DNA of 14,324 nt from a candidate division WOR-3 bacterium (lineage in GTDB: Bacteria > Hydrothermota > Hydrothermia > LBFQ01 > DSFT01), in the NCBI GenBank assembly GCA_965649115.1, contig CBFGJN010000047.1:1-14324 (forward strand), in the 5' to 3' direction. A model generated the notes under the pieces. It saw only the letters and a program-made list of their open reading frames with translations, was not told the DNA's origin and ran no database searches. Position numbers and translations under genes: made by a program. Within the stretch, counting starts at the first letter, position 1, and each line of letters opens with the position of its first letter. Shown here in pieces: positions 1-10,673 of the stretch.

Positions 1-217
1 CAACTCGCCTGCATGAAGACGGAGTCACTAGTAATCGCCTATCAGCTATGGGGCGGTGAATACGTTCTCGGGCCTTGCACACACCGCCCGTCACGCCACG
101 GGAGTCGGGGGTACCCAGAGTCCCACTCTAATAAGTGGGATGAGGGTAAACCCGGCGACTGGGGCGAAGTCGTAACAAGGTAGCCGTACGGGAACGTGCG
201 GCTGGATCACCTCCTTT
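1..217 (+). rRNA. rrs: 16S rRNA, 3' end (partial)
   Basis: Conserved GCACACACCGCCCGTCA, AAGTCGTAACAAGGTAGCCGTA and anti-SD end GGATCACCTCCTTT (204-217). Confidence 0.99.
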
Positions 218-290: not shown

Positions 291-362
291 GGGGCGGTAG
301 CTCAGTGGGAGAGCGTCCGTTTCGCAAGCGGAAGGTCGCCGGTTCAAATCCGGTCCGCTCCA
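291..362 (+). tRNA. tRNA-Ala(CGC), no encoded CCA
   Basis: Cloverleaf: acceptor GGGGCGG/CCGCTCC with G3:U70, D arm GCTC/GAGC, anticodon arm TCCGT-TT CGC AA-GCGGA (anticodon 323-325), T loop TTCAAAT, discriminator A362. Confidence 0.97.
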
Positions 363-3834: not shown

Positions 3835-4926
3835 ATGGCAAAAGCCAAGAAAAATTATTATGAAATTTTAGGAGTTAGTCCGAATGCTACACAAGAAGAA
3901 ATTAAAGAAGCATATAGAAAATTAGTTCTTAAATATCACCCTGATAAAGTTCCTCCTGAAAAGAAAAAAGAAGCAGAAGAAAAATTTAAAGAAATTTCAG
4001 AAGCTTATGAAGTTCTCTCTGATCCTGAAAAAAGAAAATTATATGACACTTATGGAACAGCTGACTTTTCAGATTATAGCAATTATAATTTCAACTTTCA
4101 AGATTTCTTTTCAAGACATTATGATGATTTAAGAGATATTTTCGGGGATTTCTTTTCAGATATATTTGAAAACTTATTTAATGTCCGAGGAACAAAAAGA
4201 ACTTATAGAGAAAGAGGGAAAAGCATCCTATATAGACTTGAATTAAGTCTAGAAGAAATTGCAAAGGGAATAACAAAAGAAATTGAATACAATAGGTTTG
4301 TTAAATGTGAGCAATGCTTAGGATTAGGAGGAAAAGAAAGAACTTGTCATGTTTGTTCAGGTTCAGGATATGTTATAAAATCTTCACGAACATTTGGTTT
4401 TCTCTTTCAAACGCAATCAGTTTGTCCAAATTGTTCAGGAACAGGTTATGAAATATATCAAAGATGTTCACATTGTGATGGTTTAGGAATTGTAAAAAAG
4501 AAAGAAAAAATAAAAGTTGAAATTCCAAGGGGTGTTAAAAATGGTGAAAGAATTGTTATTAGAGGTAAAGGAGATGCAGGACCAAGAGGTGGAGACTATG
4601 GAGATTTATACATTGAAATTATTGAAAAACCACATGAAATATACAAAAGAGTTGGTGATGATTTAATTATGAATTTAAAAGTTAAATTAACGCAAATTGT
4701 TCTTGGTGATGAAATTGAACTAACAGATATTATGGGAGAAAAATTCAAAGTAAAAATTCCTAATTCATTCAATATAAATGAAATGCTTGTTATTAAAGGC
4801 AGAGGTATGCCAAATAGTTATGGAAAAAGAGGGGACCTAAAAATTAAACTAAATATAGACATTCCTAAAAACTTAGATAGTAAAGCAAAAAAATTATTTG
4901 AAGAACTTAAAAAGTTAGGTTATTAA
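3835..4926 (+). CDS. dnaJ: Chaperone DnaJ (class A)
   Basis: J domain with HPD, DIF motifs, four CxxCxGxG zinc-finger motifs, C-terminal domain (GDLY, KGRGMP). Confidence 0.95.
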
Positions 4927-4927
4927 C

Positions 4928-4949
4928 ATGCTTTAAAATTTTCAAACTT
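4928..4949 (+). promoter_or_regulatory. Putative promoter of tRNA-Glu (-10 TAAAAT at 4934-4939)
   Basis: ATGCTTTAAAATTTTCAAACTT, near-identical to the block upstream of tRNA-Phe, which has a perfect TATAAT. Confidence 0.65.
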
Positions 4950-5021
4950 GCCCCCATCGTCTAGCGGCTAGGACACCACTCTTTCAAGGTGGAGGCAGGG
5001 GTTCGATTCCCCTTGGGGGCA
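4950..5021 (+). tRNA. tRNA-Glu(UUC), no encoded CCA
   Basis: Acceptor GCCCCCA/TGGGGGC, anticodon arm CCACT-CT TTC AA-GGTGG (4983-4985), T arm AGGGG-TTCGATT-CCCCT, discriminator A5021. Confidence 0.97.
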
Positions 5022-5444
5022 TTGAAAAATTTTTTAATTGTATTTATTTTAATATCCTGTCAAGCATATAAATTAGGTCATCAAGAAGAGTTAATTTTAG
5101 CAGTTTCAAAAGGACAATTAAGTAAAGTTAAAGATTTAATAAAGAGAGGAGCAGATGTAAATACAAAAGATAAAGATGGAAAAACAATTTTACATATTGC
5201 TATTGAAAATAATTACGAAGATATAGTTAAATTTTTAATTCAAAATAAAGCTGATGTCAATATAAAGGATAATGATGGAAATACTCCATTACATTTAGCA
5301 ATTAAAAACAATAATGATTTTATTGTAAAATTACTAATAAAAGCAGGAGCTAAAAAAGATATTAAAAATAATGAAGGTAAAACGCCATTAGATTTAGCAA
5401 AAGAAATAAACAATCCCGAAATTTTGAAACTTTTAAATGAATGA
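5022..5444 (+). CDS. Ankyrin-repeat protein, probable lipoprotein; start re-called to TTG 5022
   Basis: Ankyrin consensus GKTILHIA, GNTPLHLA, GKTPLDLA with ADVN linkers; N-terminus MKNFLIVFILIS-C resembles a lipoprotein signal; the track GTG at 4989 is inside the tRNA. Confidence 0.85.
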   Translation: MKNFLIVFILISCQAYKLGHQEELILAVSKGQLSKVKDLIKRGADVNTKDKDGKTILHIAIENNYEDIVKFLIQNKADVNIKDNDGNTPLHLAIKNNNDFIVKLLIKAGAKKDIKNNEGKTPLDLAKEINNPEILKLLNE

Positions 5445-7534
5445 TTTTTCTATTTATATTTTGGCTAATTTTATTTTTACCAATCATCTTCCTTTCAAAT
5501 CCCTTATTTGACGACACAATAGAGGAATTTTATCCAAATTTTTACTTTATAACTGAACAATTAAAAGACTTAAAATTACCATCATTTAACCCTTATTTTT
5601 TCTCAGGTCATCCTGTTATCCATAATGTCCAGCTTTTTGAGTTCAATCCATTATTTTTAATAAGAAATTTTATCGGAATTTTCAATAATTCAATTTATGT
5701 TTTCAATTTACTTATTAGTTTAAACTATCTTCTTGCTTTAATTTTCTCTTATCTTTACTTTAAAAAATTAAAATTTAAAAAAGAGGAAATAGCAATTTTT
5801 GGTTCAATAATATTTACCTTTTCAACATGCTATATTTTTACAATTATTCATCCTCACACTTATGACTTTATACCTTTCGTGCCATTAGTTTTGTACTTTT
5901 TAGATGATAAACCTTACTTATCTGCTTTATTTATGGGTTTTGCATTTCATTCAGGACATCCTCAAAAACCTATTTATCTTCTAATTTTGATTTTTATTAT
6001 CTATCTCTTTAAAATTCTTGAAAATAGAAGAGAAGTTTTTAAATTTATTTTATTTTTAATAGTTTTTTTACCTTTTGTTTTCTCATTTTATTTTCAAGGA
6101 ATTGATTTATTTACAATTAGCAAACGAGTTGAAAATGATTTAAAATTTCTCCTTGAAATGTCTTTTCATTTTGACAGAATAATAACTTTAATTATTCCAA
6201 AGTTTTATGGCTCAGTTGAAAGTGAATATATCGGTGGTCCATATTATTTTTATACCGAAATGACATTTTACTTTACAATAATTGGATTATTGCTTGCTAT
6301 TTATGGTTCATTAAAAAATTACAAAGATAAATTTGTTCTTTCAATAATATTTAGTGCTTTTCTTTTATTTCTTTTAGCACTTGGAGACCAAAATGTTATC
6401 ATAAAATTTTTATATGAAAGTGGAATTATTAAAGGTATCAGAAATCCTGCAAGAGCATTATTTATATATCCAATAATCATTTCAATTCTTGCTTGTTATG
6501 GTTTAAATAGTCTTTTAAAGGAAAGAAAACTAAATCAAATTAACTATATTGTTTTGGGAATTTTATTTATTTTTTTACTATTTTTGCCATTTATTCCAAA
6601 AGAAATTGATATTTCAAATGAAATTTTCAAATTTTTCATATTTTTAGCACTTTCATATGTTTTAATTTATGGTTTTTTAAAGAAAATTTTAAGTGAAAAA
6701 CTATTTTTATATAGTGTTATTTTGATTGCTTTTATTGACTACTATCTTATTAGTGGTTCTTATTTAAAAATAAGAAAATTTGAAGATGTTTATGCTTATT
6801 ATAGTCCAAATTTTGTTAATCAACTAAAAGCTAATAATTTAGGAGAATATCGTATAAATTCAAGGTTTTATAAAGGTCTTACACTTCCAAGAAATTCAGG
6901 TTCTATAAATAAATTGGAGTTAATAGAAGGTTATGACCCATTAGTTTCTAAATTTTATACTGATTTTCATGATTATATTATTAGAAGAAATGAAGGATTT
7001 GAAAATTTATTAAGAATGGCGAATGTTAGATATTATATAACAGATAGTGGATTTTTGGAATTAAAAAATTACTTACCAAGAGCATATATTGTTCATTGTG
7101 TAAAAATTATTAAAGATAGTTTTGAATTTTTTTCAAATGCTAAAAATTTAGAGCCTCAAAGATGTGTTTATTTATCTAATAAACCAAGCAAAAATTATAA
7201 TTTAGGAAAAAATTATGAAAATGTTAAAATTTTGAAATATAATTCAAGTGAAATTTTATTAGAATATGATATAGATGAAGATGGAATTTTAGTTTTAAGT
7301 GTTAATTATTATCCTTATTGGAAAGCAAAACTAAATGATAAGGAAGTCAAAATTTTGAGAGCAAATTGGACATTTATGGCAATTGAAGTTCCAAAAGGTA
7401 AAAACATCGTTAAATTTTATTATGATATAACTAAATTTTTTATAAGTTTAGATTTTTGGGCTTTGGGAATAATTTTATCACTAATTTTTGCTTTGTATAG
7501 AAAGAGGATAAAAGCTCTAAATAAAGTTAAGTAA
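5441..7534 (+). CDS. YfhO-like polytopic membrane glycosyltransferase (GT-C fold)
   Basis: Many TM helices, FYP..FNPYFFSGHP, RNPAR, GYDPL and the YfhO-type C-terminus YYPYWKA..ANWTFMAIEVPKG. Confidence 0.8.
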   Translation: MIFLFIFWLILFLPIIFLSNPLFDDTIEEFYPNFYFITEQLKDLKLPSFNPYFFSGHPVIHNVQLFEFNPLFLIRNFIGIFNNSIYVFNLLISLNYLLALIFSYLYFKKLKFKKEEIAIFGSIIFTFSTCYIFTIIHPHTYDFIPFVPLVLYFLDDKPYLSALFMGFAFHSGHPQKPIYLLILIFIIYLFKILENRREVFKFILFLIVFLPFVFSFYFQGIDLFTISKRVENDLKFLLEMSFHFDRIITLIIPKFYGSVESEYIGGPYYFYTEMTFYFTIIGLLLAIYGSLKNYKDKFVLSIIFSAFLLFLLALGDQNVIIKFLYESGIIKGIRNPARALFIYPIIISILACYGLNSLLKERKLNQINYIVLGILFIFLLFLPFIPKEIDISNEIFKFFIFLALSYVLIYGFLKKILSEKLFLYSVILIAFIDYYLISGSYLKIRKFEDVYAYYSPNFVNQLKANNLGEYRINSRFYKGLTLPRNSGSINKLELIEGYDPLVSKFYTDFHDYIIRRNEGFENLLRMANVRYYITDSGFLELKNYLPRAYIVHCVKIIKDSFEFFSNAKNLEPQRCVYLSNKPSKNYNLGKNYENVKILKYNSSEILLEYDIDEDGILVLSVNYYPYWKAKLNDKEVKILRANWTFMAIEVPKGKNIVKFYYDITKFFISLDFWALGIILSLIFALYRKRIKALNKVK

Positions 7535-7647: not shown

Positions 7648-8463
7648 ATGACCGAAAAAGAAATTTTAGAAATAAAAAAAAAACATCCAGAAGTTATATT
7701 AGAAATTATTTATTCAAGTTCAATAGCGACAAAAAAAGATATTAAAATTTTATATAGAAAACTAAATTTAAACTTTCAAAACAAACTTGAAGAGAAAAAG
7801 ATAGAGATTGAAAAGGCATTAGAAGAAAAACTTGAATTAAAGAAACTTGAAATTGAAAGGACAATAAGAATTGAAATAGAAAAAATAAGAAACGAATTTC
7901 AATTAGAAATTGAAAAAATAAGAAGTGAGATGCTTGAAAAAATTTCAGAGACTGAAAAAAATCTTAAAATTGAAATTGAAAAAATAAGAAGCGAGAGTAA
8001 TGAAAGGATTGAAAAATTAAGAAGCGAGATGTTTCAAAAAATTTCAGAAACAGAGAAAAACTTAAAAATAGAAATTGAGAAAACAAGAGCTGAAAGCAAT
8101 GAAAGAATGAATCAGATGGAAAATCAAATTAAGCTGGAAATTGAAAAATTAAGAAGCGAAAGTAATGAAAGGATAGCTCAATCAGAAAATCAAATTAAGT
8201 TAGAAATTGAGAAAATAAGAAACGAGATGATTCAAAGAATTTCAGAGGTTGAAAAAAATCTTAAAATTGAGATTGAGAAAATAAGAGCTGAAAGTAATGA
8301 AAGAATAGCCCAATCAGAAAATCAAACGAAATTAGAAATAGAGAAATTAAGAGCTGAGATTGAAATTAAATTACAAATTATGAAAAATTCCTTATTAAAA
8401 TGGATTATTGGTTTAATTTTAACTCAAACACTTGTTATTGTAATTACAATAATTTTGAAGTAA
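7648..8463 (+). CDS. DUF1640/CCDC90-like membrane-anchored coiled-coil protein
   Basis: IATKKDI neck-like motif, long repetitive coiled coil, C-terminal LLKWIIGLILTQTLVIVITIILK anchor. Confidence 0.75.
   Translation: MTEKEILEIKKKHPEVILEIIYSSSIATKKDIKILYRKLNLNFQNKLEEKKIEIEKALEEKLELKKLEIERTIRIEIEKIRNEFQLEIEKIRSEMLEKISETEKNLKIEIEKIRSESNERIEKLRSEMFQKISETEKNLKIEIEKTRAESNERMNQMENQIKLEIEKLRSESNERIAQSENQIKLEIEKIRNEMIQRISEVEKNLKIEIEKIRAESNERIAQSENQTKLEIEKLRAEIEIKLQIMKNSLLKWIIGLILTQTLVIVITIILK
7870..8365 (+). repeat. Intragenic tandem repeats of 11/22 codons
   Basis: Recurring L(K/E)IEIEK(I/L)R(S/A)E followed by SNERIAQSENQ or MxQKISExEKN, conserved at DNA level; boundaries approximate. Confidence 0.8.
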
Positions 8464-8520: not shown

Positions 8521-9480
8521 CTAATTTTTTGGACATTTTATAAGCTTCAAAATCAAATTATATTTTAATGTTTTCCAAGAAATTTCAAATTCTTTTGTTT
8601 CAGTTGATTTTTTAAATAAGCTTAAAAGTCCTTTTGGTTTTGGAGATATATTTTTTATTGAAATTGGGCTGGAAATGACAACAAAATAATTATTTTTTTC
8701 AGTTGGTAAGTACCTTATAGTTGAACTATCTGTAATGAGTTTATAATTTTTAAAATCATATTGTTTTTTAAATTTTTCCATTTCTTGACTACTTAAAATA
8801 AATAGCCATGCTTTACCTTCAAGAATTTTAATTGAAATTTCAAGAGTATCAATTTGGTCTATTAAATAAGGTCCAAAGCTATGATATTGAATTTGAATTT
8901 TATTTGATTTAAGATAAAAACTATCAATTTTAAATGATTTATTTTCTAAAATTTGATAAACACACCTATTTTTTGGCTTGAAAAGAAAAATAAAAATTAT
9001 TAATAAAAACAATAAAATTGGGAAAATAATTAAGAATTTATTCAATTTGAAATTTTTTATCTTCTCAAAAGAATACCCACATTTTTTACAAAATCTATCA
9101 ATTAAATTATTTTCATAACCGCAATTTGGACATATTTTTATATTTTTTATTTTATATCCACAATTTGAGCAAAAGTTAGAATTTTCTTCAATTTCTTTTT
9201 GACAATTTGGACATCTTTGAATGTAATTTATATCGGGAGCAAACTTATATTTTTCTATTTCAGAACTTTTTAGTTCCTTTAATAAAACCCTCCCTTCCTT
9301 CCACTCTTTTATTCTTTCTAATTCCCTTGGAGAACTATCCCATGTTGAATCAACATCTTTTATCTTACCTTCAACAAAAACAACCCTTACTACACCTCCT
9401 TGTGGTCCAAGAAAAATAATTCTACCTGTCCATTTATTTTTTATAGCGTTAATTATTACTTCTTCAAAATTAACATTCAT
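8521..9480 (-). CDS. DUF4388/PATAN-like domain + double zinc ribbon + TM + C-terminal extracytoplasmic domain
   Basis: WTGRIIF..VVFVEGKI..WKEG pattern; CPNC..FCSNCG..CPNCG..FCKKCG; TM FLIIFPILLFLLIIFIFLF. Confidence 0.7.
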   Translation of the reverse strand: MNVNFEEVIINAIKNKWTGRIIFLGPQGGVVRVVFVEGKIKDVDSTWDSSPRELERIKEWKEGRVLLKELKSSEIEKYKFAPDINYIQRCPNCQKEIEENSNFCSNCGYKIKNIKICPNCGYENNLIDRFCKKCGYSFEKIKNFKLNKFLIIFPILLFLLIIFIFLFKPKNRCVYQILENKSFKIDSFYLKSNKIQIQYHSFGPYLIDQIDTLEISIKILEGKAWLFILSSQEMEKFKKQYDFKNYKLITDSSTIRYLPTEKNNYFVVISSPISIKNISPKPKGLLSLFKKSTETKEFEISWKTLKYNLILKLIKCPKN

Positions 9481-9725
9481 TCCTCAAAAAATAATTTCTT
9501 TAAATTTAGAATTCTTTGGTATTCTTCATAAGCTTTATTCTCAATTTCCTCCTCACTTAAATTTATTTCTTGTGATTTGTTATATATTCCTTCAAGAATG
9601 TTTTGATAAACAATCTGAAAAAATTCATTAATTTGTTCTTTTAAAATTTTTAGAAATTCTTCAAGCTCTAAATAACCTCTTTCTGAAAGCAATTGTAAAT
9701 ATAGTTTATATATGTAATTATTCAT
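9477..9725 (-). CDS. Small helical hypothetical protein
   Basis: 82-aa ORF joined to both neighbours by ATGA overlaps. Confidence 0.65.
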   Translation of the reverse strand: MNNYIYKLYLQLLSERGYLELEEFLKILKEQINEFFQIVYQNILEGIYNKSQEINLSEEEIENKAYEEYQRILNLKKLFFEE

Positions 9726-10387
9726 CTTGAAATTTCAAAACTTCCATTACTTTGCTCAACATATAAAACCTTATCAGATGAACCTTCTTCACCACTACAA
9801 GCAAAACATTTTATATTTTTACCATAAATTTTAAAATCTCCTAAATCTTTTGAATATATTATTTTTAATGAGCCAGTTGATTTTAATTTTATGTAGCTAT
9901 CTCTATTTATAATTCTTCCAGAACTATAAAATTCTTTTAAATCAGCATTTGAATTCATAAATGTCCAATTAAAATTTTTATTTGACCTAAATGAACCTTT
10001 AATAATTCCATTATCTATTAATGCTTTACCTTCATTCACATTAACATTGAATTCAATCAAACATAATTTGCATTCTATATCCAAGTTTTCAAATGTTCCA
10101 GAAATTTTAATTTTAGCAAAATCGCTTTCACATCTATTTAAAACGACTGCGCTATAACCACAAGCAATGTTTCCAACTACTTTTAAAATTATTTTTGAGG
10201 TTTGAGGTATTGTAAATTTTGTATTTTCAGTAATTTTATATTTATAATAGTCTTTTGCTTGCTCTTCATAACCATAACTTTTTGCTTCTACTTTAACTTT
10301 ATTTGAATTCCAACTATTTATTTCAAGCTCTATTTTGCTTTGTTCAATTTTTATGTCAAATGTTTGACTGAAAATTAGATAAATCAA
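9722..10387 (-). CDS. Beta-rich, Cys-containing hypothetical protein (possibly DUF4097-like, exported); TTG start
   Basis: 221-aa ORF, beta-strand-like periodicity, ends VEQSNGSFEISR; family assignment tentative. Confidence 0.6.
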   Translation of the reverse strand: MIYLIFSQTFDIKIEQSKIELEINSWNSNKVKVEAKSYGYEEQAKDYYKYKITENTKFTIPQTSKIILKVVGNIACGYSAVVLNRCESDFAKIKISGTFENLDIECKLCLIEFNVNVNEGKALIDNGIIKGSFRSNKNFNWTFMNSNADLKEFYSSGRIINRDSYIKLKSTGSLKIIYSKDLGDFKIYGKNIKCFACSGEEGSSDKVLYVEQSNGSFEISR

Positions 10388-10460
<73 letters not shown>

Positions 10461-10465
10461 TTTTC

Positions 10466-10490
10466 GGCAAGTTTGAAAATTATAAAGCAT
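10466..10490 (-). promoter_or_regulatory. Putative promoter of tRNA-Phe (-10 TATAAT at 10484-10479)
   Basis: ATGCTTTATAATTTTCAAACTTGCC, 24/25 identical to 4928-4952. Confidence 0.7.
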
Positions 10491-10544
10491 AGTTAAAGGA
10501 GGGGAAAGCCCCCTCTAAATAATGTTAAATCTTTGGAAAAATCT

Positions 10545-10673
10545 ATAAAATTTTCAGAATTCCTATAAAAATTTTAATTTAAGGGGGGTGAAGTTTTAAG
10601 GCGAAGCCTTATATTTAGGGTGGGCAGGAAAAATATAATAAAATAAATAGTTTCAGAATTATTGGACACAGCA
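10545..10673. mobile_element. Second, partial copy of element B (inverted relative to 3609-3752)
   Basis: TIR GAATTATTGGACACAGCA (10656-10673) is identical to the reverse complement of 3609-3626; interior AGTTTTAAGGCGAAGCCTTATATTTAGG matches AGTTTTAAGACGAAGGCTTAAATTTAGG; other TIR not found, left boundary approximate. Confidence 0.78.

Follow-up and report, generated by a model that had tools for sequence, protein, structure and literature searches.

Start codons directly behind transfer RNA genes in a candidate division WOR-3 bacterium: a proposed release of near-leaderless messages by cleavage

Punctuation of transcripts by transfer RNAs (tRNAs) is textbook biology for animal mitochondria, and in Escherichia coli the tRNA-tufB operon gives a co-transcript of tRNA and messenger RNA (mRNA). 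The punctuation of animal mitochondrial transcripts goes back to Ojala, Montoya and Attardi (1981), as described in PMC10941002, which also cites "Life without RNase P" in Nanoarchaeum equitans (Randau et al. 2008) and describes Aquificaceae that are without rnpA and rnpB and have the protein HARP instead. In Thermococcus kodakarensis, a tRNA-Lys lies inside the 159-nucleotide (nt) 5′ untranslated region of TK0306, according to PMC4247193, and PMC3848588 describes mRNAs of Propionibacterium acnes that are leaderless and begin with GUG or UUG, as well as a strong dependence of leaderless translation on a 5′ AUG in E. coli. Our full-text literature searches returned no paper describing tRNA-released leaderless mRNAs as a genome-wide design of bacteria; the papers that did come up dealt with mitochondria, with individual co-transcripts of archaea or with leaderless mRNAs that are primary transcripts. 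Here we describe a stretch of 14,324 nt (the window; contig CBFGJN010000047.1 of GenBank assembly GCA_965649115.1) from a candidate division WOR-3 bacterium of the Hydrothermota, in which the TTG start codon of an operon for an ankyrin-repeat lipoprotein and a YfhO-family membrane protein directly follows the last base of the tRNA-Glu(UUC) gene. The window is contig C47 of a genome (G000) of 1,848,020 bases in 99 contigs, with 27.6% G+C and a completeness of 94.5%, and a search of sequencing runs found the window DNA in hot-spring metagenomes, with no RNA run among the 21 runs listed. An original prediction, made from the letters of the window, held that tRNA 3′ processing by RNase Z would create a leaderless UUG mRNA for this operon and that the same layout recurs at tRNA-Phe.

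The junction consists of the following features:

4931-4939, plus strand: −10 promoter motif CTTTAAAAT, 10 nt 5′ of the tRNA-Glu +1, read from the sequence
4950-5021, plus strand: tRNA-Glu(UUC), 72 nt, CCA-less (Rfam RF00005 with Infernal, 66.1 bits over the full model; ARAGORN; cloverleaf by folding)
5022-5444, plus strand: ankyrin-repeat lipoprotein gene with a TTG start and a spacer of 0 (open reading frame [ORF], translation, Ank_2 E 5e-52)
5022-5060, plus strand: putative signal peptide of the ankyrin lipoprotein including the lipobox Cys; the product reads MKNFLIVFILISC, with the lipobox L-I-S-C, judged by eye
5441-7534, plus strand: YfhO-family membrane protein gene (PF09586 YfhO, E 9.6e-12)

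The gap of 23 nt between the dnaJ stop codon (4924-4926) and tRNA-Glu contains the CTTTAAAAT box. The ARAGORN call for the tRNA (4949-5022) is too long by one base at either end; the 7-bp acceptor stem, in which G4950 pairs with C5020, together with U8 sets A5021 as the discriminator. As originally predicted, the TTG at 5022 abuts this discriminator, and it is the sole junction with a spacer of 0 in the genome. This tRNA-Glu is also the only gene in the assembly with a UUC anticodon. The ankyrin ORF comprises 140 codons from the in-frame TTG at 5022-5024 and, again as predicted, is free of internal Met codons; apart from TTG 5022, the frame offers only GTG at 4989 and TTG at 5013 as starts, both within tRNA-Glu. 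Lipoprotein signals have a basic N-region and a hydrophobic stretch followed by [LVI][ASTVI][GAS]C. Translation from TTG 5022 yields a product with such a signal, in agreement with the prediction, and the relatives retain LISC, VISC, LFSC or ILGC (both judged by eye). The ATG of the YfhO gene overlaps the ankyrin stop codon (ATGA), placing both genes in one operon, and this gene order is repeated in a contig of a relative. A generic promoter and terminator scan found no promoter-like site inside tRNA-Glu and no terminator-like site after it. When folded, the junction sequence gave the cloverleaf, and the bases near the start codon formed only weak A-U pairs.

The tRNA-Glu junction is conserved in the genus (genomes G000 to G004, within family f1, which comprises G000 to G006). 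A TTG follows tRNA-Glu with a spacer of 0 in four of the five genus genomes (G000, G002, G003 and G004) and in one public contig, and a single base separates the two in G001. The ankyrin signal peptides diverge among these relatives, with the lipobox kept. In a genome of the sister family f2 (G009), tRNA-Glu(UUC) adjoins a different gene, likewise with a TTG at spacer 0; judging from its N-terminus, we read this gene as purB-like.

The second junction in the window is that of tRNA-Phe:

10479-10487, minus strand: −10 promoter motif CTTTATAAT, 18 nt 5′ of the tRNA-Phe +1
10389-10460, minus strand: tRNA-Phe(GAA), CCA-less, discriminator A10389 (Rfam 72.8 bits; ARAGORN; refined ends)
9722-10387, minus strand: ORF of 221 codons with a TTG start, beginning 1 nt (T10388) after the tRNA-Phe discriminator (ORF list)

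The predicted recurrence of the layout was borne out here with one base, rather than none, between A10389 and the TTG at 10387-10385. The 221-codon ORF has no Pfam match and leads an operon that includes 9477-9725 and 8521-9480. Its homologues in G001, G003 and G004 carry an ATG at the exact codon of TTG 10387; in G003 and G004, a CTTTAAAAT box precedes this ATG by 9 nt and no tRNA intervenes, as in an ordinary leaderless gene. The tRNA-Phe stands between promoter and start only in G000 and G002. Thus, none of the homologues examined at either junction starts elsewhere: the ankyrin TTG adjoins tRNA-Glu across the genus, and the start of the tRNA-Phe-linked ORF stays at the same codon.

Is this layout a property of the genome as a whole? 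We re-derived the ends of all 45 tRNAs of G000 from the 7-bp acceptor stem, U8 and G1, which gave a canonical discriminator in every case, and grouped the tRNAs into 39 units. We counted as a junction any start codon that lies 0 to 5 nt after the discriminator and opens an ORF of 45 codons or more. Junctions were found in 27 of the 39 units compared with 3.1% of 20,000 random positions (binomial P ∼6e-32), an excess of ∼22-fold. The spacers measured 0 nt in one unit, 1 nt in eight, 2 nt in seven, 3 nt in six, 4 nt in two and 5 nt in three, so that 21 of the 27 junctions have a spacer of 1 to 3 nt and 9 of the 39 units a spacer of 0 or 1 nt; the excess of short distances anticipated by the original prediction is therefore present. 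The start codons are ATG in 17 junctions, TTG in 9 and GTG in 1. Among the non-junction units, five have a spacer of 7 to 14 nt, and the other seven lack a canonical start in the first 30 nt. One of these seven, tRNA-Val(UAC) (contig C63, 171-900), is followed after 3 nt by an ATT that opens the frame of a family-2 glycosyltransferase; the Pfam domain of this protein starts at residue 5, and the frame contains no ATG, GTG or TTG. This is probably a 28th junction, with an AUU start.

The start codons called at these junctions are correct. In an NCBIfam scan of 30 downstream proteins, eight had no family match and 15 aligned from residue 1 to 5 onto profile position 1 to 8. These 15 comprise L33, L31, L19, GlmS (residues 1-610 on positions 1-600 of 601), Mdh, Ndk, RdgB (GTG start), GcvPA (TTG), HMG-CoA lyase (TTG), AcnA, Prs (TTG, spacer 9), a UgtP-like transferase (TTG), a HAD phosphatase, a flavin monooxygenase and a threonine dehydratase. 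The junction genes include ones that the cell needs. Taken together, these data confirm that the start codons abutting tRNAs are real, nonrandom and conserved.

On the other side of the tRNA, six upstream genes take their stop codon from the tRNA that follows:

C6:21404-23197, C31:2848-3408, C9:26505-27230, C12:25322-26443, C16:14472-14906 and C79:3147-3797: upstream genes with a tRNA-borne stop

They encode an S15 peptidase, an RNase H-like protein, an E1 dehydrogenase, a cupin, Rpe and one protein of no assigned family. In two cases the stop is formed by TA and the G+1 of the tRNA, and in four the conserved U8-A9-G10 is read as TAG. A cut at the tRNA +1 would strip the stop codon from these six upstream mRNAs.

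We then asked how the junction genes might be transcribed and translated. A strong −10 motif lies ahead of the tRNA in 21 of the 27 junction units and a weak one in 2; the 4 units with none all directly follow an upstream gene. The distance from the −10 box to the tRNA +1 is bimodal, with 9 to 10 nt in 14 units and 15 to 16 nt in 12 units, and four tRNA clusters, together holding 10 of the 45 tRNAs, have spacers of 2 to 8 nt. These distances and clusters imply that some 5′ processing of tRNAs must exist. In the last 45 nt before the junction starts, none of the 27 genes has a −10-like hexamer, because this stretch consists of the GC-rich T-arm and acceptor strand. We therefore rejected an internal promoter for the junction genes, in keeping with the blank scan inside tRNA-Glu. 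As separate observations on the promoters of this genome, a conserved block of ∼22 nt lies 17 to 19 nt ahead of many −10 boxes, and copies of a GC-hairpin repeat are abundant upstream of promoters, at ∼10495-10665 of the window and at many contig ends.

A 4-nt Shine-Dalgarno (SD) core was present within 20 nt of the start in only 1 of the 27 junction genes, though the tail of the 16S ribosomal RNA (rRNA) retains CCUCC, and a signal hidden in the tRNA 3′ strand was rejected on this count. Genes led by an SD site also exist in G000. The motif CTTTA[AT]AAT occurs in 1088 copies, of which 401 have a start codon of an ORF of at least 60 codons 6 to 11 nt downstream; the distances peak at 7 nt (129 genes) and 9 nt (89 genes), and the start is ATG in 334 of the 401. 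A −10 box some 6 to 11 nt before the start in a large share of genes marks a bacterial leaderless regime, and G000 shows this signature. From these 401 genes, messages with leaders of 0 to 4 nt appear to be the norm in this genome.

None of the 45 tRNAs encodes CCA, which extends to the whole genome what had been predicted for tRNA-Glu, and every anticodon but CAU is single copy. A cut at the discriminator is thus needed for each of these tRNAs to mature. In this genome, of which A makes up 36%, the base after the discriminator (position 74) is T or C in 43 of the 45 tRNAs (P 3e-11); T occupies positions 74, 75 and 76 in 31, 30 and 27 of the 45 tRNAs, respectively. Sampled relatives likewise carry a pyrimidine at position 74, in 31 of 31 tRNAs in G005, 31 of 31 in G009 and 31 of 32 in G036, and in G020, which is without the abutting layout, position 74 is T or C in 28 of 35. 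This bias points to a sequence-sensitive step at the bond after the discriminator, and it can explain why the spacer-0 gene starts with TTG rather than ATG.

The distribution of the layout was followed in samples of 30 tRNA loci per relative:

G009, sister family f2: start within 5 nt in 20 of 27 units
G005, same family as G000, other genus: start within 5 nt in 3 of 25 units
G036, family f3: start within 5 nt in 0 of 29 units, at 10 to 21 nt in 18 of 29
G020, family f4 of the same class, complete genome: start within 5 nt in 1 of 30 units

Many tRNAs of G005 have a second −10 box right behind them, with the next start 6 to 8 nt on, a different way of packing a leaderless gene behind a tRNA; tRNA-Gly(CCC) in G000 likewise has a second −10 box before the next start. 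The leaders between tRNA and start in G036 are AT-rich and show no SD site by eye. The spacing of 10 to 21 nt in f3 may represent an intermediate stage. Read across these genomes, the counts suggest that the compaction evolved within the class and that junctions turn over.

How, then, are the junction genes expressed? Because none of the 27 has a −10 box of its own, no terminator follows tRNA-Glu and the CCA-less tRNAs are single copy, we infer that tRNA and ORF form one transcript, made from the promoter ahead of them, and that cleavage at the tRNA 3′ end releases a near-leaderless mRNA, a reading we consider likely. A strong sigma-70-type promoter with a CTTTAAAAT-type −10 box would initiate a few bases ahead of the tRNA, and RNA polymerase would read through the CCA-less tRNA into an ORF starting 0 to 5 nt past the discriminator. 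An endonuclease would then cut at or just past the discriminator; this cut would supply the tRNA 3′ end needed for CCA addition and would leave an mRNA with a leader of 0 to 5 nt. As such a 5′ end is of the same kind as that of the ∼400 ordinary promoter-made near-leaderless messages, the same SD-independent initiation could translate the cut mRNA. Applied to 5021/5022, this scheme requires a cut precisely at the bond that joins A73 to U74, which would give an mRNA beginning with 5′-UUG for the ankyrin lipoprotein-YfhO operon. The original prediction of a leaderless UUG mRNA made by tRNA 3′ processing is thus compatible with the spacing, the conserved starts and the leaderless regime; its choice of enzyme was not supported.

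RNase Z, named in that prediction as the cutting enzyme, was not found above the TIGR02651 cut-off in any of 41 genomes (G000 and 40 relatives). The best TIGR02651 score in G000 was 25.8 bits against a cut-off of 292.95, and TIGR02650 had no match in this genome. A 300-residue metallo-β-lactamase protein was rejected as RNase Z, its best scores being to class-B lactamase and GloB models and to PqsE thioesterase structures. CCA-type nucleotidyltransferase genes are present: two class-II nucleotidyltransferase genes best match CCA-adding enzymes, below the equivalog cut-offs. RNase Y was detected in all 15 genomes searched and was the sole one present among the endonucleases that we looked for.

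A second gap concerns the 5′ end. RNase P RNA (RF00010) was found in none of the seven f1 genomes compared with 33 of 34 in the rest of the class, and RnpA (PF00825) in none of the seven compared with 32 of 34; across the phylum, 179 of 201 genomes have an RnpA match. RnpA was also not matched in a second family, f26 (0 of 6 genomes), and in two f36 genomes. Searches for type B and archaeal RNase P RNA (RF00011, RF00373) found neither, and HARP (PF18477, PIN_9) was absent from the seven f1 genomes at E ≤ 0.01, with matches in control genomes. An nhmmer profile built from eight sister-family rnpB genes gave no match in G000 at E ≤ 10 and gave 1e-36 and 1e-49 in two class-level controls. RF02357 and the PRORP family PF16953 had no match either, but control genomes were silent too, so these blanks carry no weight. 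At contig C24, 14496-18089, G000 has rpmH followed after 5 nt by yidD, yidC, jag and mnmE, with no rnpA between rpmH and yidD; the synteny around rnpA in family f2 is uninformative, only an upstream DUF192 gene being common. Single enzyme absences are provisional because the genome is 94.5% complete; the seven-genome RNase P pattern and the gap in the rpmH operon are not. It is conceivable, if somewhat less likely than not, that family f1 has lost both RNase P, RNA and protein, and RNase Z, and that one or more nucleases of another type act in their place; with most tRNAs placed between a promoter and a start codon, this activity would also be obligatory for the expression of dozens of operons.

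Several points weigh against the proposed release of mRNAs by cleavage. The shared transcript, the position of the cut and the translation of the released message are all deduced from DNA. Like RNase Z, RNase E/G and RNase J were not found, and RNase Y is not known for precise cuts at discriminators. The layout is not obligatory: 12 of the 39 units in G000 have no canonical start within 5 nt, and in G005 only 3 of 25 units abut and many next genes have −10 boxes of their own. Finally, TTG and GTG together account for 10 of the 27 starts at junctions, which sits uneasily with the AUG dependence of leaderless translation in E. coli.

The failure to find a precise RNase Z-type endonuclease and the presence of RNase Y in all genomes searched would fit an alternative in which the co-transcript is cut imprecisely inside the AU-rich start of the ORF, for instance by RNase Y, and is then trimmed by a 3′ exonuclease. 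Each transcript would yield either a tRNA or a translatable mRNA and never both, the mRNA being translated before or instead of cleavage. In line with this, P. acnes is without an obvious tRNase Z and yet cuts 3′ of CCA-less tRNAs, according to PMC3848588. However, a folded tRNA 0 to 5 nt before a start that almost always has no SD core would leave the uncut transcript no single-stranded leader for ribosome loading, and the tight spacers of 1 to 3 nt and the pyrimidine at position 74 argue for selection on a defined cut. Genes in high demand, such as glmS and those of the three ribosomal proteins, would also have to compete one for one with their tRNA. We consider this alternative unlikely. 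Less probable still, and in our view improbable, is independent expression of the junction genes from promoters of their own or by unrecognized internal initiation on uncut RNA, with the tight spacing a mere result of genome compaction. The second −10 boxes behind many G005 tRNAs and behind tRNA-Gly(CCC) in G000 show that such promoters can occur, and the genome is compact enough for upstream ORFs to borrow stop codons from tRNAs; against this stand the absence of a −10-like hexamer from all 27 junction genes, the blank promoter scan inside tRNA-Glu and the lack of a terminator after it. That the starts are miscalled or adjacent by chance, with the true starts further downstream, is extremely improbable; the ankyrin and tRNA-Phe ORFs do use TTG and have no family with a fixed N-terminus, but the random-position, profile and homologue results already contradict this explanation.

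Other features of the window lie apart from the two junctions:

1-217, plus strand: 3′ end of 16S rRNA (RF00177, 204 bits, model 1308-1533) with an intact CCUCC anti-SD tail
291-362, plus strand: tRNA-Ala(CGC), downstream of the 16S rRNA, with no promoter of its own and no abutting ORF

The tRNA-Ala(CGC) is one of two tRNAs in G000 with A at position 74. No 23S rRNA follows the 16S rRNA and tRNA-Ala in the window; on the minus strand, a convergent gene at 344-1321 that we call nucleotidyltransferase-like from its sequence reaches into tRNA-Ala and overlaps its last 19 nt. At 7648-8463, the window encodes a protein of 271 residues made up almost entirely of EIEKIR-type coiled-coil repeats with a C-terminal hydrophobic anchor.

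Should family f1 indeed have lost both enzymes, maturing a tRNA and activating an mRNA would be one and the same reaction in this free-living bacterium, obligatory for operons that include three ribosomal protein genes, glmS, prs and central metabolism. If release by cleavage holds, the output of housekeeping proteins would be tied to tRNA promoters, and leaderless initiation, also at UUG and GUG, could use a processed 5′ end in place of a primary one. That neither RNase P nor RNase Z was found invites a hunt for tRNA-processing enzymes of new kinds. Among the families of this lineage, spacing is conventional in one, 10 to 21 nt in another and 0 to 5 nt in two, a natural series that shows how such compaction evolves.

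How does this design compare with known systems? The RNase Z of Bacillus subtilis reportedly acts on CCA-less tRNAs and is said to be stimulated by downstream uracils (Pellegrini et al. 2012). The tRNAs of G000 resemble its substrates in being CCA-less and U-rich at positions 74 to 76, but no homologue of the enzyme was found here. As in T. kodakarensis TK0306 and the tRNA-tufB operon of E. coli, one promoter would serve a tRNA and a downstream protein gene; those examples are single cases with normal leaders between tRNA and ORF.

The leaderless regimes of other bacteria, described for Actinobacteria, share with G000 a −10 box at a fixed short distance from the start in hundreds of genes and a tolerance of GUG and UUG starts. 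In those regimes, the mRNA has a primary triphosphate 5′ end, whereas here a sizeable class of messages would gain its end by RNA cleavage. Promoters very near the tRNA 5′ end and an undetected RNase P recall Nanoarchaeum. Transcription there starts at the tRNA +1, however, whereas in G000 the bimodal −10 distance, the tRNA clusters and the ORF-tRNA-ORF units mean that 5′ leaders must exist and be removed. Like Aquifex and other Aquificaceae in the account of PMC10941002, G000 is a thermophile with a small genome, no detectable RNase P RNA and an rpmH-yidD-yidC order without rnpA; unlike them, it belongs to a family in which none of seven genomes has HARP.

The closest parallel is with animal mitochondria, although G000 differs from them in being a free-living bacterium of ∼1.85 Mb, with a promoter right before the tRNA in 21 of the 27 junction units in place of one genome-long transcript. 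The mitochondrial pair of RNase P and RNase Z/ELAC2 was not found here, the 16S rRNA retains its anti-SD and some genes retain SD sites. In both systems, tRNA genes abut ORFs with no or minimal spacers, as they do in 27 of the 39 units here. Six units also have an upstream ORF that enters the tRNA and ends inside it or 1 nt in; the two stops formed by TA and G+1 recall the incomplete stop codons of mitochondria. If the proposed cleavage takes place, the likeness would extend to the messages themselves: in this bacterium, as in animal mitochondria, tRNA excision would define mRNA ends and yield near-leaderless mRNAs that are translated without the use of SD sites.

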